A DNA stretch of 64,000 nucleotides from Candidatus Parcubacteria bacterium (GTDB lineage: Bacteria; Patescibacteriota; Saccharimonadia; Saccharimonadales; 2-12-FULL-41-12): positions 771-64,770 of the forward strand of contig JAHWKM010000003.1 of the NCBI GenBank assembly GCA_019347895.1, in the 5' to 3' direction. The notes below the pieces were generated by a model that ran no database searches, was not told the origin of the DNA, and was given only the letters and a program-made list of their open reading frames with translations. This document shows, one piece after another, positions 1,202 through 56,574 of this stretch. The position numbers and the translations under genes were made by a program. Each line of letters opens with the position of its first letter. Within the stretch, counting starts at the first letter, position 1.

Positions 1202-1357
1202 TGGAGGGCCAGGAGGGACTCGCCCACATTCTGCGGGCCCAGAACTTTCATACTTACGGCATAGTCGCAAATCTGAAAGATTCTCTTGCGAAATGCCCCC
1301 GGCATTTCTCACCCCCGACACCCTTTTGGCGTGTTCGGGATTCGAGTCCATTCTCCA
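1202..1357 (-). ncRNA. class-1 tRNA-satellite element (Lys-CUU type): antisense T-arm copy + sense 3' third of tRNA-Lys with ~88-nt insert in the T-loop, ends in CCA
   Basis: Minus strand reads TGGAGAATGGACTCGAATCCCGAACACGCC-AAAA-GGGTGTCGGGGGT|GAGAAATGCCGGGGGCATTTCGCAAG...GGGCCCGCAGAATGTGGG|CGAGTCCCTCCTGGCCCTCCA. The flanks match tRNA-Lys at 1401..1477. The insert is conserved in 4 other copies. Confidence 0.5.
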
Positions 1358-1480: not shown

Positions 1481-1566
1481 TGTCTGCAAGACAGCCGGGC
1501 TGGCCCATCATTGCAAACATCTTGATTGATTTGTCTGCAAGACAGCCGGGCTGGCCCATCATTGCA
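1481..1566. repeat. 35-bp perfect direct repeat x2 upstream of tRNA-Lys (duplicated leader/promoter carrying a copy of the acceptor 5' strand)
   Basis: tgtctgcaagacagccgggctggcccatcattgca occurs at 1481-1515 and 1532-1566. On the minus strand each copy reads TGCAATGAT-GGGCCAG-CCCGGCTGTCTTGCAGACA, where GGGCCAG is the tRNA 5' acceptor strand followed by a hairpin. Confidence 0.8.
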
Positions 1567-1570
1567 GACA

Positions 1571-1810
1571 TTAAATTCTTTTGTGAAGGTTAGCTCTTAT
1601 TGCGCTGCTCCGCTTTACTTGTTTTTTACGGAATCTGGCATTTTGAAGGCCTTCATATGCTTTATAGTATATCAGTCGAAGCGGTCTTCGAAACTTTGTA
1701 GAAGTTACTTTTCCGTTGTTATGATCCGTGAAACGCTTTTTAAGATTACTTGTTGAACCGTAGTAATGCCGTCCATCTTCCCCGGAAACAAGTATATAAA
1801 AATAATACAT
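1571..1810 (-). CDS. GIY-YIG nuclease superfamily small protein
   Basis: 79 aa, MYYFYILVSGEDGRHYYGSTSNLKKRFTDHNNG, with the GIY...YIG spacing typical of the UPF0213/YhbQ-like family. Confidence 0.7.
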   Translation of the reverse strand: MYYFYILVSGEDGRHYYGSTSNLKKRFTDHNNGKVTSTKFRRPLRLIYYKAYEGLQNARFRKKQVKRSSAIRANLHKRI

Positions 1811-3267: not shown

Positions 3268-4503
3268 CGATTTCAGGGTTTTTCGAAGCTTTGATGCAAG
3301 GTACAGCGAGCCCGTAATAAGTACTTTTGATTCGACCGATTTAAGCCCTTTTTTAAGTGCTTCTTCCGGATTGGGCGCCACTATGCAGTGGCTATTTTCA
3401 AAATATTCAGCGATGTAGGCTGGTTCAAGCGACTTTTGGTGATGATCTTGCTTAGTGTCAAATGAAGTTATAATGACCCGGCTGGCGATTTTTTGAACCA
3501 GCCTGGTCATCTGCAACAAATGGGGTTTTTTATTTTTGCCGACGGCTAAAATAACGCAAACTTTCTCCTCTCCAAGTTCTTGTTTTAAGCTGTCAATAAG
3601 AGCCTGCATTTTTTGGGTGTTATGAGCGCCGTCTAAAATAAGTTCTTTATCCTCAAATTTATATCTTTCAATTCTCCCGGGAATAGTTAATTTTAAAGTT
3701 TTTTCCAGGCTATCTGTTGGCAAAGGTTTTTTATTTTCAAGGTTAAAAATATGCTCGGCTACTTTATTTGCCAGCGTAAAATTGCGTTTTTGCAACATTG
3801 GCAGATCAATATTTTTATCGATTTGTCGATTTACTATCAAGTCAGCTTTTTTGGACTTTGCCTCAGACTTAATGATATCAATAATTTTACCGGCCTGATC
3901 GTTTGCGAATACGGTATTGCCCGGCTGCAATATGCCTGCTTTTTGCATTGTTATTTTCTGGATTGTGCTACCTAAAATATCGGTATGGTCAAGCCCTATA
4001 TCGGTTATTACGCATATTTTGTTTACACCGGCGACAATATTGGTAGCATCTAACTTCCCGCCCAGGCCTGTCTCAATAACCGCGTAGTCAACCTTAATTT
4101 TAGCGAAATACCAAAAAGCAAAAGCCGTGAATAATTCAAAATATGTCAGCTTAATACTTAACCTGTTAAGTATACTTAAGAAGTTAGAAAACTCTTTACA
4201 AAATAATGCTTCTTCAAGCGGTTTTAAGTCTATCTGTATCCGCTCATTAACTTGGTCAATATGCGGGGAGATACTCAGCCCGGTCTTAAGGCCATTTTGC
4301 CTGAGCAGCTCGGCAATATAATAACTAGTCGAGGTTTTGCCGCTGGTACCAGCTACGTGAATAACCTTGATTTTATCCTGGGGATCTCCCAGCCGGTTCA
4401 TCAAATTCTTAATTCTATCCAGGCTATAGCTGTCTTTATCGGGCAATTCCATAATGCTGCGCGGTAAAACAGTCTTCAGATCATCAAATGTGTTAATCCT
4501 CAT
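3256..4503 (-). CDS. folC: folylpolyglutamate synthase / dihydrofolate synthase
   Basis: Mur-ligase P-loop VIHVAGTSGKTSTSYY and overall FolC-like sequence. Start moved to MRINTF (4503) because the longer ORF overlaps the tRNA at 4513..4589. Confidence 0.8.
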   Translation of the reverse strand: MRINTFDDLKTVLPRSIMELPDKDSYSLDRIKNLMNRLGDPQDKIKVIHVAGTSGKTSTSYYIAELLRQNGLKTGLSISPHIDQVNERIQIDLKPLEEALFCKEFSNFLSILNRLSIKLTYFELFTAFAFWYFAKIKVDYAVIETGLGGKLDATNIVAGVNKICVITDIGLDHTDILGSTIQKITMQKAGILQPGNTVFANDQAGKIIDIIKSEAKSKKADLIVNRQIDKNIDLPMLQKRNFTLANKVAEHIFNLENKKPLPTDSLEKTLKLTIPGRIERYKFEDKELILDGAHNTQKMQALIDSLKQELGEEKVCVILAVGKNKKPHLLQMTRLVQKIASRVIITSFDTKQDHHQKSLEPAYIAEYFENSHCIVAPNPEEALKKGLKSVESKVLITGSLYLASKLRKTLKSLGG

Positions 4504-4512
4504 AGTTTTTAG

Positions 4513-4589
4513 TGGTACCCGTGGACGGATTCGAACCGCCGACACCTGGTTCCGAAGACCAGTGCTCTAATCCGCTGAGCTACACGGGC
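4513..4589 (-). tRNA. tRNA-Arg (anticodon TCG), CCA encoded
   Basis: Reverse complement GCCCGTGTAGCTCAGCGGATTAGAGCACTGGTCTTCGGAACCAGGTGTCGGCGGTTCGAATCCGTCCACGGGTACCA. Anticodon loop is CTTCGGA. Confidence 0.9.
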
Positions 4590-4690
4590 ATAATTAACAT
4601 TATAAGCCATATGTTCGAATCCTTGGCTTGACCTACCCGTCGTTTTCATAAATGAAAACGCGGTCAGGCCCAGTCTGTTAGCCCATAATC
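4590..4690 (-). other. degenerate class-1-like remnant plus TATAAT promoter directly upstream of tRNA-Arg(UCG)
   Basis: Minus strand reads ACTGGGCCTGACCGCG-[TTTTCAT TT ATGAAAA]-CGACGGGTAGGTC-AAGCCAAGGATTCGAACATATGGCTT-ATAATGTTAATTA. It resembles the GGGCCTGC..GGTAGGTCGAATCC end of the Arg class-1 element. Confidence 0.3.
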
Positions 4691-4700
4691 ATATTTTGAA

Positions 4701-5273
4701 CTATTTATCCGTCTTGTTTTCGTCGTTTTGCTTTTCGGTTTTTGGGGCGGATAATAGCTTGGTTTCTTGGGATTTGTCGTATTTTTCTAAGGTCGTCTTT
4801 ATAACTTTTAGCATTCTCTCGGCGTGTTCACGGCTCATACCAACCTGGCTAACAGATACCGGTTTGCCGTTTTGCGACTGCATAAACTGCAGCACCATGC
4901 CGTGTTTGTTAACAGTCGCGTTCATGCTGTCAGTGTATACCACGCGGTTGTCCACCGGCAGATACATAACAACTTGCTTCATCAGCATGTCCTCGATCCC
5001 ACCAGCCAGTAAACTTTCCGGAATTGCTGTATCTTTTGGCACTGTAGCCATGGCCCGCAGCTCCAAAGCCTGTTCTTCGCTCAGCAGGAAGTGGTTGATT
5101 ATCATATCGAGCAGATTGTCATTGGGCAGAATTTTCCCGGACTCGATTTGCTTCAATTCTTTTTCATCAATCTCTAAAGTCGTAGACACCTCGTCAACCG
5201 TTTGCTGCCACTTCTCTCTAAGGCTCTTAATTTTTTCGCCTAAAACCTTGTGCGGTTGTTCACTTTTACCCAT
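4701..5273 (-). CDS. helix-turn-helix (XRE-like) domain protein
   Basis: N-terminal LGEKIKSLREKWQQTVDEVSTTLEIDEKELKQIESGK HTH pattern. The rest is unassigned. Start at MGKSEQ preferred over the 5324 start. Confidence 0.4.
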   Translation of the reverse strand: MGKSEQPHKVLGEKIKSLREKWQQTVDEVSTTLEIDEKELKQIESGKILPNDNLLDMIINHFLLSEEQALELRAMATVPKDTAIPESLLAGGIEDMLMKQVVMYLPVDNRVVYTDSMNATVNKHGMVLQFMQSQNGKPVSVSQVGMSREHAERMLKVIKTTLEKYDKSQETKLLSAPKTEKQNDENKTDK

Positions 5274-7175: not shown

Positions 7176-8449
7176 TTGTCGCTGGGCAGGGGGAACTGCA
7201 GGGCAAATTCTTTAACTTCATTATGAATTTGTACAAGTTTTTGATCGTCATTTCGAGCTTCAACTGCCTGCTTCATCCACTGCGCAATTTGCTCCATGTC
7301 GCCTTCTTTAAGCCCCCGGGTAGTTAGCGCTGGGGTGCCCAGACGGATTCCGCTTGGCCGAAATGGCGGGTTAGGATCATCGGGAATGGAATTTTTATTC
7401 AGGGTTAAACCTATTTTATCGAGTGTTTCTTCGGCAACCTTGCCGTTAATCCCAAAACTTGTCTGAACATCAACTAGCATAAGATGGTTGTCGGTTCCAT
7501 TAGTAATCAGTTTAAAACCGCGTTTCATCAGCTCTTCAGCCAGTTTCTTAGCATTATCAACCACCTGGCGGGCATATTTCTTAAACTCCGGCTGGGCAGC
7601 TTCGCCAAAAGCTACAGCCTTAGCTGCAATCGCATGCATATGCGGACCGCCCTGAAAACCCGGAAAAACTTCACGGTCTATCAAGGTCGGAAGGTTGTCG
7701 ACAGTTTTTTCTACCTTTTTTAGGGGGTTGCCAACTTTTCCATTACTTAAAATTAACCCTCCCCGCGGACCGCGCAGAGTTTTGTGAGTGGTAGAGGTAA
7801 TTATATGAAAGCCGAAATCAAAAGGATTAGGCGAAACTCCTCCGGCAATTAAGCCGGCAATGTGCGCCATATCGGCCACCAAAACGGCTCCCACCTCCTC
7901 GCCTATTTCCGCGAATTTTGCATAATCCAGATTGCGAGGATAACCGGAAAAACCGGCTAAAATAATTTTTGGTTTTTCTCTCTTAGCCACAGCCAGCATT
8001 TCATCATAATCAATCTCTCCGGTTTCAATGTCCTTCATGCCATAGCGCACAAAATTGTAAAGCTTGGCAGAACTTGTTACCGGGTGGCCATGCGTTAAAT
8101 GCCCGCCTTGATCCAGTTTCATTCCTAAGACAGTATCACCGGGCTCCAGCCAGGCTTGATAAACCGCAATATTTGCCGGCGCGCCGGAATGCGGCTGTAC
8201 ATTGGCGTGGTCGCAATCAAACAATGCTTTAACCCGATCAATTGCCAATTGCTCGACCTGGTCGGTAAAATCTTGCCCGCCATAATAGCGTTTTCCAGGG
8301 TAACCCTCTGAATATTTATTAGTAAAAACGCTGCCTAAAGCATTCAATACATCGCGGCTGACATAGTTCTCGCTGGGGATTAGCTCCAGGCCTTCGCGCT
8401 GACGCTTTTCCTCGCCTTTTATCAATTTAGCAATGACTTGGTCTTGCAT
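7172..8449 (-). CDS. glyA: serine hydroxymethyltransferase
   Basis: Full-length SHMT similarity including the TSTTHKTLRGPRGG PLP-lysine motif. Start at MQDQVI (8449) follows GAGGAA. The longer ORF would reach 8467. Confidence 0.9.
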   Translation of the reverse strand: MQDQVIAKLIKGEEKRQREGLELIPSENYVSRDVLNALGSVFTNKYSEGYPGKRYYGGQDFTDQVEQLAIDRVKALFDCDHANVQPHSGAPANIAVYQAWLEPGDTVLGMKLDQGGHLTHGHPVTSSAKLYNFVRYGMKDIETGEIDYDEMLAVAKREKPKIILAGFSGYPRNLDYAKFAEIGEEVGAVLVADMAHIAGLIAGGVSPNPFDFGFHIITSTTHKTLRGPRGGLILSNGKVGNPLKKVEKTVDNLPTLIDREVFPGFQGGPHMHAIAAKAVAFGEAAQPEFKKYARQVVDNAKKLAEELMKRGFKLITNGTDNHLMLVDVQTSFGINGKVAEETLDKIGLTLNKNSIPDDPNPPFRPSGIRLGTPALTTRGLKEGDMEQIAQWMKQAVEARNDDQKLVQIHNEVKEFALQFPLPSDN

Positions 8450-8647
8450 AATGCTCTTCCTCTTCATATCCCCTATTTATAGTCGCTCTTTACTTCTAAA
8501 TTATACGTGCAATAAAAATATAAACAAAACAGTACCAAATTATTGTCCGGCCGGACAGGTTTGTGGTACTGTTTGTTGTTTTTTTGTTTTGAGAATGGTT
8601 GAGGAATGGTTGTTTGGTGACATCACTTTTGATATCATATACCCCAA

Positions 8648-10168
8648 ATGGCAAATACAAACGAGAAAATCGGCTCCCTAATTTACCAGATCAGGCAAGA
8701 AAGAGGTTTGACGCAAGCTGAATTTGCCCGACGGCTGGGCACCAGCCAGAGCGCGGTAAACCGTATCGAAAAAGGCCGCCAAAATCTTAGTCTGGACACA
8801 CTTGGGCGCATTAGCGACGTACTTAACAAGCAGATTATTTCATTGGGCGGCGATACGGTTAACCTAAAAATTGAAGGCGGTCAAGAACTTTCCGGATCAA
8901 TAGAAACAAGGGTTGCCAAAAACTCTGCGGTTTGCCTGCTTTTTGCAGCTTTGTTAAACAAAGGTACCACCCGGCTAAAGAACATGCCGAGAATTGAGGA
9001 AGTTAATCGACTCATAGAGGTGTTGGTTAGCGTAGGCGTTAAAATCCGCCGGATGGCTGGAAACGATTTGGAAATACGGCCGCCTGAAAAATTCGACTTA
9101 TCCAAAATAGACAAGATCGCCGCCCGCAAAACCCGCAGCGTAATCATGATGCTGGGGCCTATGATGCATATGGAAAAACAATTCAGCATCCCCTATGCCG
9201 GCGGATGCAAGCTCGGCATTAGGACAGTTACGCCCCACCTCTACGCCCTGGAAGAATTCGGAGTACATATTGATACCAAAACCGGCCATTACCAGGTAGA
9301 TGTCAAGAAAAAAACGCCCAAGCAAGTGGTTATGTATGAGTCGGGCGATACTACGACAGAAAACGCCATTATGGCGGCGGCCTACCAAACCGATGAAGTC
9401 ATAATAAAAATGGCTAGCGCCAATTATCAAGTCCAGGATTTATGCTATTTTCTGAAAAAACTAGGCGTAAAGATCGAGGGCATCGGCACCAGCACGCTTA
9501 AAATCCGCGGCGTCCAGGAAGCCCATAAAAACATTACTTACTCTCCGATTGAAGACCCTATAGAATCAATGACATTTATAGCGGCAGCCGTCGCTACTAA
9601 TTCAAAAATTACCGTTAAAAGAGCGCCGATTGAGTTCTTGGAATTAGAGATTTTGAAACTTGAGAAGATGGGTCTTAGGGTTGATGTGGGCGAGCAATAC
9701 AAAGCCGACAATGGGCATAGCTGGCTAGCCGACATAACCGTGCACAAGCACAACGGTAAGTTGGTGGCGCTGGAAGAGAAAATTTATGCCCGGCCTTACC
9801 CGGGGTTAAACATAGACAACTTGCCCTATTTCGTGCCGATTGCCGCCGTAGCCAAAGGCCGCACCCTGATACATGACTGGGTTTACGAAGAGCGGGCGCT
9901 ATATTATACCGAGATGCGCAAACTTGGCGTGAATGTGACCTTAGCCGATCCGCACCGCGCTTATATTGACGGACCGACTAAATGGCATGTAGCGGATATC
10001 GTCTGCCCCCCGGCCTTGCGCCCGGCAGTTTTACTGCTGATAGGCATGCTGGCCGCCGACGATATTTCGATTTTACGCAATGTCTACTCTATTAACCGCG
10101 GCTATGAATATTTAGCGGAACGACTTAATTCCCTAGGCGCCAAGATAGAAATTCTCCACGACATATAA
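8648..10168 (+). CDS. murA: UDP-N-acetylglucosamine 1-carboxyvinyltransferase with N-terminal XRE-type HTH domain
   Basis: Residues ~1-65 are HTH (IRQERGLTQAEFARRLGTSQSAVNRIEKGRQN). The remainder is MurA/EPSP-fold with catalytic-Cys loop PYAGGCKLGIRTV and C-terminal INRGYEYLAERLNSLGAKIE. Confidence 0.8.
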   Translation: MANTNEKIGSLIYQIRQERGLTQAEFARRLGTSQSAVNRIEKGRQNLSLDTLGRISDVLNKQIISLGGDTVNLKIEGGQELSGSIETRVAKNSAVCLLFAALLNKGTTRLKNMPRIEEVNRLIEVLVSVGVKIRRMAGNDLEIRPPEKFDLSKIDKIAARKTRSVIMMLGPMMHMEKQFSIPYAGGCKLGIRTVTPHLYALEEFGVHIDTKTGHYQVDVKKKTPKQVVMYESGDTTTENAIMAAAYQTDEVIIKMASANYQVQDLCYFLKKLGVKIEGIGTSTLKIRGVQEAHKNITYSPIEDPIESMTFIAAAVATNSKITVKRAPIEFLELEILKLEKMGLRVDVGEQYKADNGHSWLADITVHKHNGKLVALEEKIYARPYPGLNIDNLPYFVPIAAVAKGRTLIHDWVYEERALYYTEMRKLGVNVTLADPHRAYIDGPTKWHVADIVCPPALRPAVLLLIGMLAADDISILRNVYSINRGYEYLAERLNSLGAKIEILHDI

Positions 10169-10172
10169 TTTT

Positions 10173-10247
10173 TGGTGCGGGCGGGGAGAATCGAACTCCC
10201 ATCTCTTGCTTGGAAGGCAGGTATATTAGCCGTTATACGACGCCCGC
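10173..10247 (-). tRNA. tRNA-Gly (anticodon TCC), CCA encoded
   Basis: Reverse complement GCGGGCGTCGTATAACGGCTAATATACCTGCCTTCCAAGCAAGAGATGGGAGTTCGATTCTCCCCGCCCGCACCA. Confidence 0.9.
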
Positions 10248-10264
10248 GTCAATGTTTAACTATA

Positions 10265-10930
10265 CTACACAGGCTCTAGCGCTCTATCAATCCAGCCGCT
10301 TATCCTTCTGTACAAGGTTACACCTTTCTCAGATTCGCCATTACAAACTACACTGATATGTGCTGTGCCGTGCGGCAGTTTGCTGCGGTTATTACGATTT
10401 TTATTTATTCGTTTATCGACCATGGTTTTTCGAAAGTTCTTGATCGGCAATTCCGTTATTGTCCGCCAGTATTTTTTGGCTTCTAGTTCATTATTGTCCG
10501 GATAAATGTGAAGTCTGACCGTTAAATTATCGTTTGTTAAATCACAAATTTCTTTAAGCCATCTAACAGCAATTGCAATAACAACCGGATCAGAATTCGA
10601 TATACGGATACCCTCTGTGGTCTTTGAACCTTCGCCGATGTATAGACCAAGACCAAGCATCCATAAATCTCGGCGTGACAGCTTTCCGATCTCTGCTTTG
10701 CCTAGCTTCCTATACTTGGCAATATCTTTTAATCTTTGCTCATGCCTTAAAGCGCCGGATTTAATAGGTCCATATTGAATTCTTTTTAACATTTCTGTGT
10801 TCGGTGAAAAAGGCCTGTCCTTAAACCAATAGCTCATTGTACTTTTAGAGATTCCCAGAGTATCACTAATCATATTGTAGGAGTATCCCTTGTCCCTTAA
10901 CGTGGTTGCTTCATGCCTAAGTGAATTCAT
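10265..10930 (-). CDS. LAGLIDADG-type homing-endonuclease-like protein with N-terminal HTH
   Basis: Single LAGLIDADG-like motif LWMLGLGLYIGEGSK. N-terminal GYSYNMISDTLGISKSTMSYWF HTH. Lies 18 bp from tRNA-Gly. Confidence 0.6.
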   Translation of the reverse strand: MNSLRHEATTLRDKGYSYNMISDTLGISKSTMSYWFKDRPFSPNTEMLKRIQYGPIKSGALRHEQRLKDIAKYRKLGKAEIGKLSRRDLWMLGLGLYIGEGSKTTEGIRISNSDPVVIAIAVRWLKEICDLTNDNLTVRLHIYPDNNELEAKKYWRTITELPIKNFRKTMVDKRINKNRNNRSKLPHGTAHISVVCNGESEKGVTLYRRISGWIDRALEPV

Positions 10931-11818: not shown

Positions 11819-11974
11819 GCCCCGGTAGCTCAGCTGGATAGAGCAGGAGACTTCTAAGCTCAAGGTCGTAGGTGAGAAATGCCTTGAATGGCATTTCGCA
11901 AGGTCGGAGCGCGACGGCGCGAGACATGCCGAAAAGAATTTTTAGCAGAAAATTACTTTTGGGCGAATCCTATC
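11819..11974 (+). ncRNA. tRNA-Arg(UCU)-like sequence interrupted in the T-loop by a ~90-nt class-2 module (pseudo-tRNA or novel tRNA-scaffold RNA)
   Basis: GCCCCGGTAGCTCAGCTGGATAGAGCAGGAGACTTCTAAGCTCAAGGTCGTAGGT|GAGAAATGCCTTGAATGGCATTTCGCAAGGTCGGAGCGCGACGGCGCGAGACATGCCGAAAAGAATTTTTAGCAGAAAATTACTTTTGGG|CGAATCCTATC. T-stem GTAGG/CCTAT pairs. There is no acceptor 3' strand and the anticodon stem is weak. Confidence 0.5.
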
Positions 11975-12002
11975 TTAAACCTTACAATATAAACCGGTAC
12001 CT

Positions 12003-12117: not shown

Positions 12118-12264
12118 ATATCTCGGGGAATCAAACCACCGACCAAAAGGTCGGGGTGAAAAATGCCTGTGGCATTTTGCAAGGAAACCTACTCTTCAAA
12201 ACTTGTTTTGAGAGACGTAGTTTCGGGCCTGCCGAAGGTAGGTCGAATCCCTCCCGGGGTACCA
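12115..12264 (+). ncRNA. class-1 tRNA-satellite element (Arg-UCU type), ends in CCA
   Basis: TGGATATCTCGGGGAATCAAACCACCGACC-AAAA-GGTCGGGGT|GAAAAATGCCTGTGGCATTTTGCAAGGAAACC...AGTTTCGGGCCTGCCGAAGGTAGG|TCGAATCCCTCCCGGGGTACCA. Confidence 0.5.
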
Positions 12265-17046: not shown

Positions 17047-18081
17047 TTATTCTATAAATTTGTTAGTGTAGAGCGCGTCGAAATTGACAGTGTCAACCGG
17101 TTTGCCGCTAACGTCTAAAACCGCGTCATTGTCCAGCATGAACTGCGGGTAATTCCGCCAATAACTTTTTTCCTGGATTCCCCAGGTCTTGCCGGGTTTT
17201 TGATATTTGCCGCTCAAATACTCCTGGCTGGCATAAACCAAGCCCTCGTCATCAAAAGTACCTTCAGACGCTTCAGCTATTAAAATCCGGGCGGCTTCGT
17301 CTGGATTGTTGCGGGCGAATTCATAGCCGCGAACGGTTGCTTTCATAAAGCGTTTCAACAAATCCTCTTTTTTGGAAATAGTGTCAGGCGAACTGATAAT
17401 GTTTGGCGTGTAATAGTCCGGTATGCCGTGTTCTATGACGGGAAATGTATCTATGGCAAAACCGCTTCTCTCGGCTTGGATTTTTTCCCAGCCGTCAAAA
17501 ATCCAAACAAAATCTACCTTGCCGGATTCCAGCGCTTGAAGCGGCGCAGTAGAAACTGTTACATTTTTGAAATTGCCTTCGCCGCCGTCGTTTTTTATAG
17601 CGGCCTTCATGACCGGTTCCTCATAGGGCATACCGTAACCGCCGTAGATTTTGCCGTCCAGCTGGTCTAGCGAAGTTATGTTATCGCTTTTCCTGGTAGC
17701 GATGGATGAGGTGTTGGTGGTGATTATAGCCGCGATTGACGTCACCTGCGAATCACTGGCCGCGTTGGCTACCACCCCTTCCGTGAAACCAATACCCGTA
17801 TCGGCCTTGCCGGCGGATACTAAAGCATCAGAAGAAGCACTGGTGGAGTACGGCAAAAGCTTTAGCTCGACTCCTTCTTCTGCGTAATAACCTTGGTTTT
17901 TAGCCACATAAAGCCCGCTGTGGTTGGTATTCGGCGTCCAATCAAGCGCCAGCGTCACTTCCTCTAGCGGCTTTTTTGCTGTCTGTTCTTTATCATTATT
18001 AACATTCTTGGCTATTAAAAAAGCGCTTAGCCCAGCCACCAAGACCAGCGCGGCAATCGCAATTAATTTTATATTCTTCAC
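17047..18081 (-). CDS. NMT1/THI5-like substrate-binding protein (ThiY-like, HMP/thiamine precursor uptake)
   Basis: N-terminal anchor, then LALDWTPNTNHSGLYVAKNQGYYAEEG, typical of the NMT1/THI5 SBP family. First gene after the TPP riboswitch. Confidence 0.75.
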   Translation of the reverse strand: MKNIKLIAIAALVLVAGLSAFLIAKNVNNDKEQTAKKPLEEVTLALDWTPNTNHSGLYVAKNQGYYAEEGVELKLLPYSTSASSDALVSAGKADTGIGFTEGVVANAASDSQVTSIAAIITTNTSSIATRKSDNITSLDQLDGKIYGGYGMPYEEPVMKAAIKNDGGEGNFKNVTVSTAPLQALESGKVDFVWIFDGWEKIQAERSGFAIDTFPVIEHGIPDYYTPNIISSPDTISKKEDLLKRFMKATVRGYEFARNNPDEAARILIAEASEGTFDDEGLVYASQEYLSGKYQKPGKTWGIQEKSYWRNYPQFMLDNDAVLDVSGKPVDTVNFDALYTNKFIE

Positions 18082-18087
18082 GTTAAT

Positions 18088-18178
18088 TCTCCCTTCGACG
18101 GCATTACCCGTACAGGTTCATTGGGTTTATCCAGGTGTCAGCTGGAATTTCTCAGCCCGGCTATCCCGAGCTCCCCAT
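18088..18178 (-). promoter_or_regulatory. TPP (THI-box) riboswitch
   Basis: Minus strand reads GGGGAGCTCGGGATAGCCGGGCTGAGAAATTCCAGCTGACACCTGGATAAACCCAATGAACCTGTACGGGTAATGCCGTCGAAGGGAG. It contains the CTGAGA, ACCC..TGAACCTG and GGTAATGCC..GAAGGGA cores. TATAAT lies at 18197-18202 (minus). Confidence 0.8.
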
Positions 18179-18207
18179 TTATATTTGGTAACGATAATTA
18201 TAACAAC

Positions 18208-27830: not shown

Positions 27831-27976
27831 TGGTCGGGGTGAGAGGACTTGCCCACGTTCCGCGGGCCCGAAACTTCATCTTTGAAAACAAGTTTTCAAG
27901 AGAAGATTTCCTTGCGACCCGCCCTGGCGGGTCTCACCTCCGACCTTTTTAGCGTCGGAGATTCAAATCTCGACCA
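27831..27976 (-). ncRNA. class-1 tRNA-satellite element (Pro-UGG type), ends in CCA
   Basis: Minus strand reads TGGTCGAGATTTGAATCTCCGACGCT-AAAA-AGGTCGGAGGT|GAGACCCGCCAGGGCGGGTCGCAAGGAAATC...AGTTTCGGGCCCGCGGAACGTGGG|CAAGTCCTCTCACCCCGACCA. Confidence 0.5.
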
Positions 27977-53590: not shown

Positions 53591-53881
53591 TGGAGGGTCC
53601 GGTGGGACTCGGCCACATCCTGCGGTCACTTTTCGCGACCCCGCTAGTTACATACTTTGAACGAGTTCAAAATCTGAAACGTAGCCTTACAAAAAGTCCC
53701 CAACTTTTCTCAACTGGAACTTTCATACTTACAGCATGCTGAAAATCTGAAAGGTTCCCTTGAGAACGTCCACTGGACGTTCTCACCCCCGACACCCTTT
53801 TGGCGTGCCGTGTTTTCAAATCTCACCAGTGAGATTCTCCAAACAAAAAACCCAGCTCTAAGCTGAGTTCTTTGTTTGGAG
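53591..53881 (-). ncRNA. class-1 tRNA-satellite element, long variant (Lys type) with duplicated middle module, ends in CCA
   Basis: Minus strand reads ...CGGCACGCC-AAAA-GGGTGTCGGGGGT|GAGAACGTCCAGTGGACGTTCTCAAGGGAACC-TTTCAGATTTTCAGCATGCTGTAAGTATGAAAG...GTTTCAGATTTTGAACTCGTTCAAAGTATG...GACCGCAGGATGTGGC|CGAGTCCCACCGGACCCTCCA. Confidence 0.45.
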
Positions 53882-54114
53882 TGTCCGGTGGGACTCGCCT
53901 CGCAAGAAAAAGAAAAAATACTTTTTCTAATGCGACCCCAAAGGCCTCTGGCCTTTCTGGGGCAAGGGGCCGGGTGAGAACTGCCCGGTGGCAGTTCGCA
54001 GAGCCGGAAGCGCGACGGCGCGCTGAGGCGGGCTCGCGAAATCCGCCAGCAGGCGGATATTTGTGAGTTGCCGAGTAGGCAATCCCGTTCGAGTCCCAAC
54101 GGAAACATCCTCCA
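53877..54114 (+). ncRNA. class-2-like tRNA-satellite element on the plus strand, ends in T-arm-like hairpin and CCA
   Basis: TGGAGTGTCCGGTGGGACTCG (antisense Lys 3' end)...CCCCAAAGGCC-TCT-GGCCTTTCTGGGG...GGGT|GAGAACTGCCCGGTGGCAGTTCGCAGAGCCGGAAGCGCGACGGCGCGCT...CCGTTCGAGTCCCAACGGAAACATCCTCCA. Palindromic hairpins flank it at 53837-53881 and 54110-54151. Confidence 0.35.
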
Positions 54115-54210: not shown

Positions 54211-54732
54211 CTAGGGGTTGACTTTGTAAACCAGTCTGACCCGTCCCAAGCTAAGTTGCTTCACACTGAGCAGCGCCATACCGAACTCAAAATTATCAAA
54301 AGCTAAAAATGGTCTACCTTTACCAATAATATAGGGTGTTACCGTAAGTTGAACTTGATTGACGAGCTTTCGTTTCGCAAAAGATGAATTGAGTATTCCA
54401 CCACCAATAAGGAACAGTGTTTTAACGCCAACCTTTTCCAAAAACTCAATGGCTTCTTCTGGACTATGCACGAGAGTGTAGCCTTTTGGTGTTTGAGAAT
54501 CATTGTTGCGAGTGACAATGAGCTTGTGGTCTACCTGCACATTATCAAAGTTCTCGTTCTCATATTTTTCAGTGACTTGTTCGTATGTTTCACGACCCAT
54601 AACGATATTGTTGTGCTCTTTTGCTTCCGCAACAAAGTCGTCCCAGCCGTCACTTGGCAACCAGTCTTCATCACCATTCTCACGAGCAATAAAGCCGTTT
54701 GGCGAAATAACCATATCCAAAATTACTTTCAT
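54211..54732 (-). CDS. dihydrofolate reductase-like protein (RibD C-terminal domain family)
   Basis: MKVILDMVISPNGFIA...NIVMGRETYE...LFLIGGGILNSSF pattern. Start at 54732 preferred over 54795. Confidence 0.7.
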   Translation of the reverse strand: MKVILDMVISPNGFIARENGDEDWLPSDGWDDFVAEAKEHNNIVMGRETYEQVTEKYENENFDNVQVDHKLIVTRNNDSQTPKGYTLVHSPEEAIEFLEKVGVKTLFLIGGGILNSSFAKRKLVNQVQLTVTPYIIGKGRPFLAFDNFEFGMALLSVKQLSLGRVRLVYKVNP

Positions 54733-54809
54733 GTGTGTATCATAACAAAAAGAGCCATTGCTGACTCTTAGTTCAGACTTTCCCGCTAGGGTCATCTGTA
54801 AGGTCGAAT

Positions 54810-54976
54810 TGGAGGGTCCGGTGGGACTCGGCCTACCTCCGGCAGGCCCGGAAGTTCACTATTGCAAGCACAGCTTGCATCGGAACGTTCCCTTACGACA
54901 TGCCACTGGCATGTCTCACCCCGACACCCTTTTGGCGTGTCGCAGATTCGAGAACCACAAAACATTAATCCTCCAT
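54810..54976 (-). ncRNA. class-1 tRNA-satellite element (Lys-UUU type), ends in CCA
   Basis: Minus strand reads ATGGAGGATTAATGTTTTGTGGTTCTCGAATCTGCGACACGCC-AAAA-GGGTGTCGGGGT|GAGACATGCCAGTGGCATGTCGTAAGGGAACG...TGCAAGC-TGT-GCTTGCA...CGGGCCTGCCGGAGGTAGGC|CGAGTCCCACCGGACCCTCCA. Confidence 0.5.
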
Positions 54977-55011
54977 AGCTCCGCAAAAAGCGGAGCGACG
55001 GAGAATGGAGG
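54970..55011 (-). terminator. palindromic terminator hairpin after tRNA-Lys(UUU)
   Basis: Minus strand reads CCTCCAT-TCTCCGTC-GCTCCGC-TTTTT-GCGGAGC-T-ATGGAGG. Confidence 0.5.
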
Positions 55012-55082
55012 GTCCGGTGGGACTCGAACCCACGACACCCTGCTTAAAAGGCAGGTGCTCTAACCGGCTGAGCTACGGACCC
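55006..55082 (-). tRNA. tRNA-Lys (anticodon TTT), CCA encoded
   Basis: Reverse complement GGGTCCGTAGCTCAGCCGGTTAGAGCACCTGCCTTTTAAGCAGGGTGTCGTGGGTTCGAGTCCCACCGGACCCTCCA. Confidence 0.9.
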
Positions 55083-55089
55083 TTGTTTA

Positions 55090-55321
55090 ATATTGTAAAT
55101 GATCACGGGTAAATCCACGACCCAAAGATAATTTTCTGGTGAAAATTTCTTTCGGCATGCCTCGCTCCGTCGCGCTCCGGCCTTGCGAACTGCCATCAGG
55201 CAGTTCTCACCCTGCTTAAAAGGCAGGTGCTCCCATGTCATCCGACATGGCCGTATCGTATGATACGGTAACCGGCTGACCTGTCCGCCGAAGCCTTGGC
55301 GTAGGCGGGAGCTACGGACCC
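55090..55321 (-). ncRNA. hairpin-decorated tRNA-Lys(UUU)-like RNA: three perfect hairpins inserted in the D-arm plus a class-2 module after the anticodon arm
   Basis: Minus strand reads GGGTCCGTAGCT[CCCGCCTACGCCAAGGCTTCGGCGGACAGGT]CAGCCGGTTA[CCGTATCATACGATACGGCCATGTCGGATGACATGG]GAGCACCTGCCTTTTAAGCAGGGT|GAGAACTGCCTGATGGCAGTTCGCAAGGCCGGAGCGCGACGGAGCGAGGCATGCCGAAAGAAATTTTCACCAGAAAATTATCTTTGGG|TCGTGGATTTACCCGTGATC. The non-inserted 47 nt are identical to the 5' 47 nt of the adjacent tRNA-Lys. Confidence 0.5.
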
Positions 55322-55500
55322 GCGTCGGAACTTACGGCAAAGTCTCGTTTTGCCTTTCGGCAAAAGCTTCGACCTACGCCTATGTTCCTCCTTTCAAAAT
55401 CACAAACAGTCGCTTCACTCCTTGGTTTGTGATTTTGTAGCAAAAACCTTGTGGTTTTTGCAGGATTGCTTCTTTTCACTGAAAATCAGAGAAATTAACT
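55322..55500 (-). ncRNA. hairpin-rich leader upstream of the decorated tRNA-Lys-like RNA
   Basis: Minus-strand hairpins: GCAAAAACC-ACAA-GGTTTTTGC (55440-55461), a 13-bp stem CAAAATCACAAAC/GTTTGTGATTTTG (55395-55437) and TTTTGCC-GAAA-GGCAAAA (~55347-55365). It also has GACTTTGCCGTAAGT and GGCGTAGGTCGAAGC, related to class-1 motifs. Confidence 0.35.
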
Positions 55501-55506
55501 TCTTAA

Positions 55507-55534
55507 ATTATCGTTATTTTAGCTAAAAAGTCAA
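55507..55534 (-). promoter_or_regulatory. putative promoter (TTGACT-16-GATAAT) for the Lys satellite/tRNA transcription unit
   Basis: Minus strand reads TTGACTttttagctaaaataacGATAAT. Confidence 0.4.
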
Positions 55535-55610
55535 TCGCGCTTAATATAAGATTTGCAAGATATAAGCAAAAGCTTTACTCTATTTACAGAGTAAGACAAA
55601 AGGATAGTTC

Positions 55611-56096
55611 ATGTTTAAAAAATTGTTTAGTATTTTCAAAAGTAAAAAAAATAAGGAAAATTCAGGCGAGCCAGCCTCTGTAAAACCCGCTGCTACAGGC
55701 GCGGCAGTAGGTGCTGCTCAGCCTGGGGTAAATCCGGCTGAACCCTCAACTCCTGCACAAGGCATCACGCCGGAGGATATATCCGATTCCAGCCCCAGCC
55801 AGACAAACGCCTATTCTGCGCCTGCGCAATCCGCGGCCCCGCCGGCACAAGAACAACCGGCGCCGTCAGCCACAGTTGCACAAGCTCCAAGTTCCCCGAC
55901 AGCTGATGATTTTAGCCAGCAGCCGTCCCCTCCTCCGCCAGCCGGCCCCGACACAGAAGAGCCTTTCAACGAATCGCCCGCTCCCACTCCCGCGCCTGGA
56001 GAAAGTGTTAGTCCGGACACCACTCAACAGACAGAGCAGCCGTCAGCTGAGAACGAACAACCCAAGCCGGAAGACAATACCCCGAACTTCGGCTAG
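55611..56096 (+). CDS. Pro/Ala/Ser/Gln-rich low-complexity protein
   Basis: 161-aa ORF with basic N-terminus MFKKLFSIFKSKKNKE, then a P/A/S/Q-rich tract. Coding status uncertain. Confidence 0.4.
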   Translation: MFKKLFSIFKSKKNKENSGEPASVKPAATGAAVGAAQPGVNPAEPSTPAQGITPEDISDSSPSQTNAYSAPAQSAAPPAQEQPAPSATVAQAPSSPTADDFSQQPSPPPPAGPDTEEPFNESPAPTPAPGESVSPDTTQQTEQPSAENEQPKPEDNTPNFG

Positions 56097-56097
56097 A

Positions 56098-56574
56098 TTA
56101 TTTGTGTTTGCTCCCGTGTTTAGCCGGATGTTTTAAGCGTGGCAACCAGGCGCTTAGAAGTATCAAAGCGCCGGATAATGAGACAATGTAGCTCTGATTA
56201 GCAGTCAAAATTATCTGCTGGCTGGCGTCAAGCCGGCTTACCACGTCAAAATAGGGGTTAATGAATATGCCCAGCGTAACCAGGCACAACAGCAGCGGCA
56301 AAACGTTGAGCAGCGTTCCAGATTTTGCTACGGAACCTTTTAAGAAAATTATTGTTAAAACTGCCGGCAGAACCAACAGTATTATTTGAAGTAATGTAGG
56401 GTTCAGTCCGGGCACAATGCCGGCGATAAAATCATAAACTTCCAGGGACAGTTCCTCGGCAAATAACTTGCCGGTCAATATACTCAAAAATAAAATGGCC
56501 GCCGGCACCCGCAGGTAAGCTATGGCAATCCATAGCACTAAAATAATAATACCAAGCATGTGCGTTTCGTTCAT
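56098..56574 (-). CDS. hypothetical integral membrane protein
   Basis: 158 aa with 4-5 TM helices. Confidence 0.5.
   Translation of the reverse strand: MNETHMLGIIILVLWIAIAYLRVPAAILFLSILTGKLFAEELSLEVYDFIAGIVPGLNPTLLQIILLVLPAVLTIIFLKGSVAKSGTLLNVLPLLLCLVTLGIFINPYFDVVSRLDASQQIILTANQSYIVSLSGALILLSAWLPRLKHPAKHGSKHK

Follow-up and report, generated by a model that had tools for sequence, protein, structure and literature searches.

A truncated tRNA-Lys(UUU) copy within a composite structured leader and related tRNA-loop modules of Saccharibacteria

Short, non-coding, hairpin-forming elements present in many copies, such as REP/BIME sequences with their RAYT transposases, Rickettsia palindromic elements, Correia elements and the IS200/IS605-derived PATEs, undergo compensatory change, reside sometimes inside RNA genes and are dispersed across intergenic or coding DNA. 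The multi-intron, split or permuted tRNA genes of archaea such as Nanoarchaeum and Caldivirga are interrupted at non-canonical sites including the D arm and the T loop, and their 5' and 3' pieces can be encoded apart. Known tRNA introns of Patescibacteria are group I introns located in the anticodon loop (PMC13011429), and partial tRNAs accrete at the integration hot spots of tycheposons in Prochlorococcus (bioRxiv 10.1101/2020.12.28.424599). The 64-kb stretch of contig JAHWKM010000003.1 analysed here (the window, at its full length), the record of which is labelled Candidatus Parcubacteria bacterium while all of its synteny relatives are Saccharibacteria, carries 5' of its tRNA-Lys(UUU) gene a composite leader arranged around a truncated copy of this tRNA, hereafter the pseudo-tRNA, with a patchy presence among orthologous loci. 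Parts of this leader are conserved structured module families that lodge in tRNA-derived loops next to intact tRNAs.

As with REP/BIME-type elements, the modules are short, non-coding and hairpin-forming with a structure kept by compensatory change; unlike those elements, they are confined to tRNA-derived loops by the cognate tRNA, and the usual terminal inverted repeats or target duplications are not seen. With the archaeal genes the module loci share the non-canonical sites of interruption and the separately encoded pieces, whereas the host is bacterial, a bulge-helix-bulge is lacking, removal of the insert does not give a tRNA and the interrupted copy always has an intact gene of its tRNA as a neighbour. 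The group I introns of Patescibacteria equally represent structured RNA in a loop of tRNA genes in the same phylum, but are self-splicing, at least 200 nt long and located in the anticodon loop of otherwise complete genes (PMC13011429), while the modules measure 30-90 nt, occupy D and T loops of incomplete copies and have no Rfam group I match. In tycheposons and genomic islands, as at the module loci, an intact tRNA is found at one end with fragments of it further along, cargo and recombinase genes lie between, and newer elements displace older ones outward. The module loci differ, however: a three-hairpin module with covariation support splits the fragments precisely at T54/T55, most units consist of just ~170 nt without cargo, the duplication in upstream units covers both the 5' part and the promoter, and inverted arm copies are present. 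In the literature searched, no description of these elements was found.

The tRNA-Lys(UUU) leader and its promoter

All coordinates of the pseudo-tRNA locus refer to the minus strand of the window. The functional tRNA-Lys(UUU) gene (55082..55006), called by ARAGORN and matching the Rfam tRNA model with 73.9 bits, is preceded by the pseudo-tRNA, in which positions 1-47 of the gene recur with 100% identity in three collinear blocks of 12, 10 and 25 nt, exact matches which chance cannot explain. Segment 1, GGGTCCGTAGCT (55321..55310; 12/12 identical to the functional gene), comprises the acceptor 5' strand and GCT of the D stem and is followed by insert 1, a 31-nt hairpin within the D stem between positions 12 and 13 (55309..55279), which occurs in the window only, with no second copy in 1.2 Mb of related loci. 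Segment 2, CAGCCGGTTA (55278..55269; 10/10 identical), represents the D loop, where insert 2 (36 nt; 55268..55233) with two perfect 7-bp hairpins follows GGTTA. Segment 3, GAGCACCTGCCTTTTAAGCAGGGTG (55232..55208; 25/25 identical; repeat family D8), consists of the D-stem 3' strand, the intact anticodon arm and GGGTG. At the third interruption, GCAGGGT is followed by ~90 nt with three hairpins (Pa, P2, P3; 55211..55120), the class-2 module characterized below, which leads into a degenerate T-arm-like hairpin, TCGTGG-ATTTAC-CCGTGA (55120..55103). An earlier note on this DNA had described a tRNA-Lys-derived sequence with 47/47 identity, interrupted at three places, and its coordinates, inserts and hairpins as well as the missing 3' acceptor strand have been confirmed. 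The -10-like box TACAAT (55089..55097) ends 9 nt 5' of the functional tRNA start; a TATAAT-like box is found at the equivalent position in the remaining upstream-type units of the family described below.

The 5' neighbour of the pseudo-tRNA is the L-module, a conserved structured 5' leader motif of ~120 nt (55441..55322), the 3' end of which adjoins position +1 of the pseudo-tRNA. Eight copies have been recovered by nhmmer, and their alignment (A5), with the conserved blocks CCAAGGAG, CGACUG, AAGGAGGA and GUCGAAGCUUUUGCC..GGCAAAACGAGAC, contains 34 pairs, 22 of them with compensatory changes. Beyond the window, copies are located in L108 (4007-4127), L066 (1435-1559 and 2254-2370), L002 (5485-5607 (-)) and L089 (7362-7474 (-)), where the 3' end adjoins +1 of the functional tRNAs Lys-CTT, His, Gly-CCC and Glu-TTC, respectively. 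The L-module has no Rfam match, and nhmmer detected none in 80 DUF192-anchored metagenome loci. A second short motif, GATGAGAAAAACCGTAGGTTYGTCTCATTAT, also recurs directly 5' of tRNAs (L133, about 1410-1439; L074, 5' of a pseudo-tRNA-Ala).

The leader is predicted to be highly structured, as the 418-nt stretch 55500..55083 folds with -167.5 kcal/mol compared with -117.8 for shuffles (z = -8.35). A 16-nt complementarity (inverted repeat I24) connects the L-module (55380..55365) with segment 1 and insert 1 (55313..55298), and in the predicted minimum-free-energy fold ACCCGUG of the degenerate T-arm-like hairpin can pair with CGCGGGU at the 5' end of the pseudo-tRNA; the latter pairing is kept neither in the relative L078 nor in the tRNA-Arg(TCT) unit of the window.

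Transcription of the leader would start from the promoter TTGACT-16-GATAAT (55534..55507; 10/12 positions match). Of 22 tRNA-Lys(UUU) loci, 17 possess a promoter TTGACTTTT-N-RATAAT ahead of the tRNA, with TAAGGAGTTA frequently following it, and the distance from the -10 box to the tRNA amounts to 21, 22, 24, 25, 34, 36, 41, 41, 72, 95, 102, 153, 158, 167, 200 and 253 nt, to 418 nt in L078 and to 424 nt in the window; in eight loci the conserved promoter is located 21-41 nt from the tRNA. Since the promoter is conserved across the tRNA-Lys(UUU) loci, the promoter in the window is the native tRNA-Lys one with ~400 nt interposed, and we therefore infer that the promoter-attached pseudo-tRNA represents the original 5' part of the gene. 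Most likely, then, the look-alike is not an interrupted functional tRNA, but the displaced 5' portion of the tRNA-Lys(UUU) gene, still on its native promoter within a leader of ~430 nt, with the intact tRNA regenerated downstream. The conservation of the promoter equally speaks for the earlier suggestion of a transcription unit that extends from TTGACT/GATAAT into the functional tRNA. The leader between promoter and tRNA-Lys(UUU) is an insertion hot spot.

DUF192 and tRNA-Lys(UUU) are syntenic across Saccharibacteria. In the comparison of orthologous loci that had been proposed in the earlier note, the upstream pseudo-tRNA is found in 0 of 16 orthologous DUF192-linked metagenome tRNA-Lys(UUU) loci; the composite recurs in L078. 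A downstream repeat of the tRNA 3' end is present in about 7 of the 16 loci, with different insert types not matched by R1, the model of the class-1 module introduced below. The L078 composite starts with promoter and L-module, continues with 22 nt from the 5' end of its own tRNA-Lys and the matching double hairpin, and ends in nested modules; insert 1 and the anticodon arm are missing. Its insert 2 occupies the same D-loop site and is identical to that of the window in 33 of 36 positions, including all 28 stem bases, while the DUF192 proteins share 42% identity. As L078 is an independent assembly with a matching architecture, the assembly chimera considered earlier can be excluded as the source of the pseudo-tRNA. 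In L202, the ATP-grasp protein of which is 69% identical to the one of the window, the interval between promoter and tRNA contains a 5' tRNA fragment of 19 nt that breaks off in the D loop, followed by ~100 nt of different sequence and a copy of the D arm in inverted orientation; among the closest relatives, with an 83%-identical ATP-grasp protein, some contigs are too short to reach the tRNA.

In the window (GGGTCCG..CAGCCGG), in L078 (GGGCCCG..CAGTTGG) and in L202, the pseudo-copy matches the tRNA of its own genome. For the perfect identity, the earlier note had offered very recent insertion, gene conversion or selection. With each pseudo-copy equal to its own genome's tRNA, gene conversion (homogenisation) or independent local duplication is favoured, while very recent insertion fails for the double hairpin, because it occupies the same D-loop position in L078 with a DUF192 protein that is merely 42% identical.

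A further possibility is an archaeal-style tRNA-Lys with multiple introns, along the lines of the earlier note, or one trans-spliced with the downstream 3' fragment, that gives rise to a second functional tRNA-Lys. Such a gene would be in line with the perfect preservation of 47 tRNA-derived nt and of the anticodon arm, and if the 5' pseudo-part is hypothetically fused to the downstream 3' fragment, ARAGORN indeed recognizes a tRNA-Lys, a call to be expected as both pieces are copies of the gene. Against it, ARAGORN finds no tRNA upon in silico deletion of the three inserts in cis, the 3' acceptor strand is lacking and an intact tRNA-Lys(UUU) follows 126 nt downstream. Upon inspection of the predicted fold, the inserts appear as self-contained hairpins flush with the junctions, without the pair of 3-nt bulges and the 4-bp helix between them that would constitute a bulge-helix-bulge. 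In the family at large, deletion of the T-loop module restores a tRNA in just 2 of 125 members among the matches listed, and L078 retains inserts, yet lacks the anticodon arm. No Intron_gpI match is obtained with Rfam at the gathering score or at E up to 10, and the inserts are located at the D stem, the D loop and T54/T55. The intron explanation is thus largely refuted and we consider it extremely improbable.

T-loop modules beside intact tRNA genes

Treated as a one-off in the earlier note, the locus belongs to a family with at least 113 loci. A search pattern built from the four downstream inserts of the window matched at least 117 stretches in GTDB species genomes, nearly all of them labelled Candidatus Saccharibacteria or Saccharimonadia; four chance matches were discarded. 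Among the matches listed, on which the following counts of copies and units are based, 125 copies are present, 61 of which are located ~77 nt downstream of an intact tRNA on the same strand and 30 of which are located 30-70 nt upstream. The adjoining tRNAs represent at least 22 anticodon types, and the module always interrupts a copy of the neighbouring tRNA between T54 and C56. In the window, four tRNAs out of seven (Lys-CTT, Arg-TCT, Pro-TGG and Lys-TTT) possess a downstream unit of ~170 nt; these related flanks had escaped the earlier note, as had the repeats of the tRNA 3' end downstream and the conserved ~120-nt leader motif.

The four downstream units of the window start with a hairpin or terminator, followed by a degenerate inverted copy of the tRNA 3' part and a direct copy of the variable region and T-stem 5' strand up to T54; the conserved insert of ~88 nt comes next, and the T-loop remainder, T-stem 3' strand, acceptor 3' strand and CCA of the cognate tRNA complete the unit. 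Across the family, the 3' flank is an exact copy of the final 20 nt of the cognate tRNA in 37/61 downstream units and deviates by at most two mismatches in 46/61. Robust features are a hairpin pairing the variable/T-stem strand (48/61) and an inverted T-loop 7-mer (22/61 versus 6.3 expected), while an exact inverted 6-mer of the tRNA 3' end occurs in 7/61 units versus 2.2 expected, the inverted copy being thus degenerate. In upstream units, a TATAAT box precedes the 5' pseudo-tRNA, the insert, the T-loop remainder with its inverted repeat, a second -10 box and finally the functional tRNA. The pseudo-tRNA of these units shows 80% overall identity with the functional gene (at least 92% in 12/30), the 30-nt leaders just 45%. 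Inverted tRNA-arm copies accompany both unit types, and nested, serial, tandem and decayed module copies occur within the family. In composite inserts (L014, L044, L057, L078, L082 and L094), a second GGUGAGAU... module is nested in the Pc 5' strand of the outer module, the 3' strand of which is altered to GUGACC.

The class-1 module, the subject of model R1, is defined by GGUGAGA-hairpin-UCGCAAGG, a long hairpin and GGGCCYGC-N-GAA-N'-GURGG between T54 and C56 of the tRNA-like flank. In the alignment of 113 inserts (A2), it forms three hairpins, Pa (U-G-(A)-GAA..GCC / GGC..UUC-(G)-CA), the long hairpin Pb and Pc (GCCYGCN-GAA-N'GURGG). R1 recovers about 25 additional copies within the same loci. 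The module of the pseudo-tRNA is matched by R1 in part only (55211..55159; 26.2 bits, E = 2e-4), namely in the first hairpin and a weak third one. Judged by this score and by alignment, the pseudo-tRNA module is a member of a related class 2 rather than a full class-1 member, while the downstream unit of the same tRNA carries a class-1 member. In a three-copy alignment (A4), class 2 shares with class 1 the Pa element, GGUGAGA-hairpin-UCGCAAGG, and differs in the two further hairpins; R1 matches the three class-2 modules of the window weakly. With Rfam 15, which includes tmRNA, YrlA, ROOL, GOLLD and ribozymes, just tRNAs and a thiamine pyrophosphate (TPP) riboswitch reach the threshold in the window, and at E up to 10 nothing credible is found in 54600-55700, neither module class being matched. 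A weak YrlA match (E = 0.12) reflects the functional tRNA only.

Could the modules be working RNAs? The L-module, the class-1 and class-2 modules and the double hairpin would then represent structured domains of tRNA-linked non-coding RNAs expressed from tRNA units, with the tRNA-like flanks as scaffold or processing signals, for example for release by RNase P, and the pseudo-tRNA would be a working part of the ~430-nt leader RNA and not a scar. The alignment of the class-1 inserts is in favour of such a role, as 25 of 32 pairs are compensated, 97.0% of cells are paired versus 75.3% in shuffles and the covariation score amounts to 0.562 versus 0.151 for shuffles and 0.06-0.10 for slid structures, the evidence consisting of Pa, Pb and the free positions of Pc, since GGTGARA, AAG and most of Pc are fixed by the search pattern. 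One G.U pair is invariant in 113/113 copies, and the Y-R pair of Pc is U-A in 61, C-G in 47, U-G in 5 and C-A in 0 copies. As G.U pairs are common and A.C rare, the structured strand is the tRNA-sense strand. Also consistent with functional RNA are the 22 compensated among the 34 pairs of the L-module and its exact abutment to tRNA +1, the TATAAT box of their own in upstream units, the identity of the 28 stem bases of insert 2 in spite of the diverged DUF192 proteins and the folding z-score of the leader. A stand-alone class-1 module in L109 (280-420) possesses a 13-bp closing helix unrelated to tRNA, is followed by an intrinsic terminator and resembles an independent small RNA gene.

On the other side, presence at orthologous tRNA-Lys loci is patchy, different insert classes occur in an identical architecture, downstream units are located behind intrinsic terminators, copies are decayed, nested or arranged in tandem, and in L078 the anticodon arm has been lost with other parts retained. 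A functional role, the leading rival of the explanation preferred below, is conceivable, if somewhat doubtful. With similar reserve, one might tentatively view class-1 and class-2 modules, L-module and double hairpin as a hitherto unrecognised class of small structured RNAs of Saccharibacteria that homes to GGTT loops and to the 5' edge of tRNA genes and is expressed and released from tRNA precursors; the tRNA gene would serve as target as well as platform for expression and processing, and the partial duplication and inverted arms would be the product of tRNA-templated insertion.

Transfer RNA genes are among the most conserved and best annotated bacterial loci, and most of the sampled tRNA genes of Saccharibacteria are flanked by unannotated, tRNA-derived structured sequence. 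Rfam lacks at least three of the conserved RNA motifs described here, namely the two classes of module (class-1 T-loop and class-2) and the L-module, for which models and searches are now feasible. Both tRNA annotation and the prediction of attachment (att) sites and islands in Patescibacteria will be misled by such fragments. If functional, the modules would indicate that the reduced genomes of epibionts use tRNA transcription units to produce a family of small RNAs.

Spread of the modules and recombination at tRNA genes

The displaced 5' part and the modules can be united in one explanation, the one that we prefer and to which we assign about an even chance, namely that the modules are loop-targeting insertion elements which survive in redundant tRNA fragments. 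To form the leader, small hairpin modules would have entered one after another: the L-module 5' of +1, insert 1 within the D stem, insert 2 behind GGTTA and the three-hairpin module at T54/T55. Directly downstream, an intact tRNA-Lys copy with a -10 box of its own would have been regenerated. The modules constitute Saccharibacteria-wide families in GGTT-containing loops of partial tRNA copies beside the intact gene for the same tRNA, and would have spread as insertion elements with a specificity for tRNA loops, either through a recombinase, for which the large serine recombinases at module loci are an example, or through an intermediate of single-strand DNA or RNA. Insertion into the sole functional copy of a tRNA would be lethal, and survivors would be encountered only in redundant fragments, which local duplication or the att repeats of integrated islands may supply. 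The entire leader would be transcribed from the native promoter and removed by RNase P cleavage at the 5' end of the functional tRNA, while identity to the functional copy would stem from recent local duplication or gene conversion. An insertion element restricted to loops of tRNA genes would, if real, have no bacterial description in the literature searched, and would give a view of how essential single-copy genes survive targeting. In favour of this explanation are the native promoter with its widely varying distance to the tRNA, the patchy occurrence at orthologous loci, the failure of insert removal to yield a tRNA, the wide range of tRNAs with a module at T54/T55, module copies in nested, tandem or decayed state, the match of each pseudo-copy with its own genome, the common site of insert 2 in the window and L078, the 19-nt fragment of L202, and the recombinase islands or small cargo ORFs that separate tRNAs from module-bearing repeats in L039, L202, L108 and the window.

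The hairpins at both module ends together with the constant left flank (GGT) are compatible with single-strand DNA elements of the IS200/IS605 or REP/RAYT type. Crossover by a serine recombinase at a GG or TT dinucleotide and target models of the IS91 or IS200 type were considered as well, but do not fit cleanly, as the junctions are off by one T.

Several observations weigh against loop-targeting insertion. No transposase or integrase is encoded at the pseudo-tRNA locus, and none has been linked to the modules. Modules of one genome share a mean identity of 0.80, compared with 0.76 for modules at the same tRNA in different genomes and 0.74 for the other pairs, a within-genome similarity too close to the background to indicate a recent burst; nearest-neighbour analysis of the 125 modules (same tRNA type in 7/91, same genome in 7/91) is uninformative with respect to a recent burst or orthology. 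T55 is occasionally lost at the module junction, unlike in clean conservative recombination, and simple insertion leaves the inverted tRNA-arm copies beside the modules unexplained. With no match of the module pattern to viral contigs (IMG/VR), a viral origin is unsupported. Covariation, the invariant G.U pair, constant orientation and the stand-alone copy in L109 suit a functional RNA equally well.

The flank downstream of tRNA-Lys(UUU) leads to a further alternative. In the downstream (D) unit (55005..54810 (-)), a hairpin (54996..54978 (-)) is followed by the tRNA 3' part in degenerate, inverted form (54976..54937 (-)) and by a second hairpin, which pairs the variable/T-stem 5' strand (54943..54918 (-)). 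A class-1 module (54920..54832 (-); R1 93.0 bits, E = 4.5e-20) comes next, and the final 20 nt of the tRNA are then directly repeated (54829..54810 (-)). These 20 nt are exactly repeated once more at 53610..53591 and recur with one mismatch at 53897..53876. An open reading frame (ORF) for a RibD_C/DHFR-like protein (54795..54211 (-); PF01872, 1.6e-16), located between such copies of the tRNA-Lys 3' end, resembles the cargo of a cassette; an att-type feature is thus present in the form of direct repeats that enclose this ORF, and no integrase or recombinase gene is found between 53591 and 55006 of the window. Similarly, a cupin ORF in L108 (about 4458-4820) is enclosed by two downstream units, and a similar TTTGTTATGAT box is located ahead of both the RibD_C ORF (54211-54795 (-)) and the cupin ORF.

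Enclosed cargo of this kind in the window and L108 can be read as a sign that the partial tRNA copies are pure recombination scars, leftovers of the integration, excision or deletion of islands by large serine or tyrosine recombinases, with the modules as immobile arms of att sites without a role as RNA. In accordance, a 4.2-kb island with a large serine recombinase is located between tRNA-Gln and a distal module with repeat in L039, a recombinase island adjoins tRNA-Lys in L202, and tycheposons are known to accumulate partial tRNAs where they integrate repeatedly (bioRxiv 10.1101/2020.12.28.424599). Double-stranded arms bound by protein are not, however, expected to give rise to strand-specific helices with compensation and G.U pairs, nor would random deletion remnants show the uniform spacing of ~77 nt found for downstream units. 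Furthermore, upstream-type units carry 5' and not 3' parts of tRNAs, modules are nested in modules and in the D loop, and a recombinase is encoded within 8 kb at just 4 of 117 loci among the matches listed. Taken together, we consider scars without any further role improbable.

The two recombinase islands display additional features. In L202, a 1.19-Mb relative, a large serine recombinase of 558 aa, a second resolvase and several small ORFs are located directly 3' of the orthologous tRNA-Lys(UUU) (8115-10283 (-)). The recombinase of L039 (569 aa) has perfect 165-bp inverted repeats on both sides (1987-2151 and 3714-3878), which start at the last 5 nt of tRNA-Gln(TTG), and its ORF extends antisense through the tRNA. 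A similar arrangement with inverted repeats of ~150 bp follows tRNA-Ser in L087.

Further units and neighbouring features of the window

Beyond the RibD_C ORF, older downstream units of tRNA-Lys(UUU) extend over 53897..53591 (-) and comprise the 3'-end repeat with one mismatch, two serial class-1-like modules (53787..53715 and 53714..53625 (-); R1 45.7 and 51.2 bits) and the exact repeat. A class-2-like module resides on the opposite strand (53973..54067 (+); inverted repeat I1; R1 30.8 bits), followed by TTCGAGTCCCAACGG...CCTCCA, a diverged tRNA-Lys-like T arm with 3' end, to about 54110. The tRNA-Lys 3' end also flanks this module (53973-54110 (+)) as an inverted copy, and both orientations of units are therefore present in this nest.

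tRNA-Arg(TCT) is the second tRNA of the window with an upstream-type unit (11819..11985 (+)), composed of a 5' pseudo-tRNA, a class-2 module in the T loop, CGAATCC and TACAAT. The unit is simpler than the one of tRNA-Lys, and its pseudo-tRNA has diverged to about 76% identity upon manual comparison. Class-1 T-loop modules are located 3' of tRNA-Arg(TCT) (12155..12242 (+); R1 101.2 bits), tRNA-Pro(TGG) (27938..27852 (-); 99.4 bits) and tRNA-Lys(CTT) (1313..1223 (-); 77.7 bits).

With respect to the neighbouring genes, no evidence has been obtained for a homing-endonuclease link to the modules of the GIY-YIG protein encoded 5' of tRNA-Lys(CTT) (79 aa; 1571-1810 (-)), nor for a link of the helix-turn-helix protein encoded 5' of tRNA-Gly(TCC) (221 aa; 10265-10930 (-)); an exact look-up of the protein encoded at 56098-56574 gave no record. 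Directly 5' of tRNA-Lys(CTT), a 35-nt repeat (TGCAATGATGGGCCAGCCCGGCTGTCTTGCAGACA) occurs twice (1481-1566 (-)), each copy with GGGCCAG, the acceptor 5' strand of this tRNA. The TPP riboswitch mentioned above is located at 18071-18187 (-) and scores 56.2 bits, just over the gathering score.

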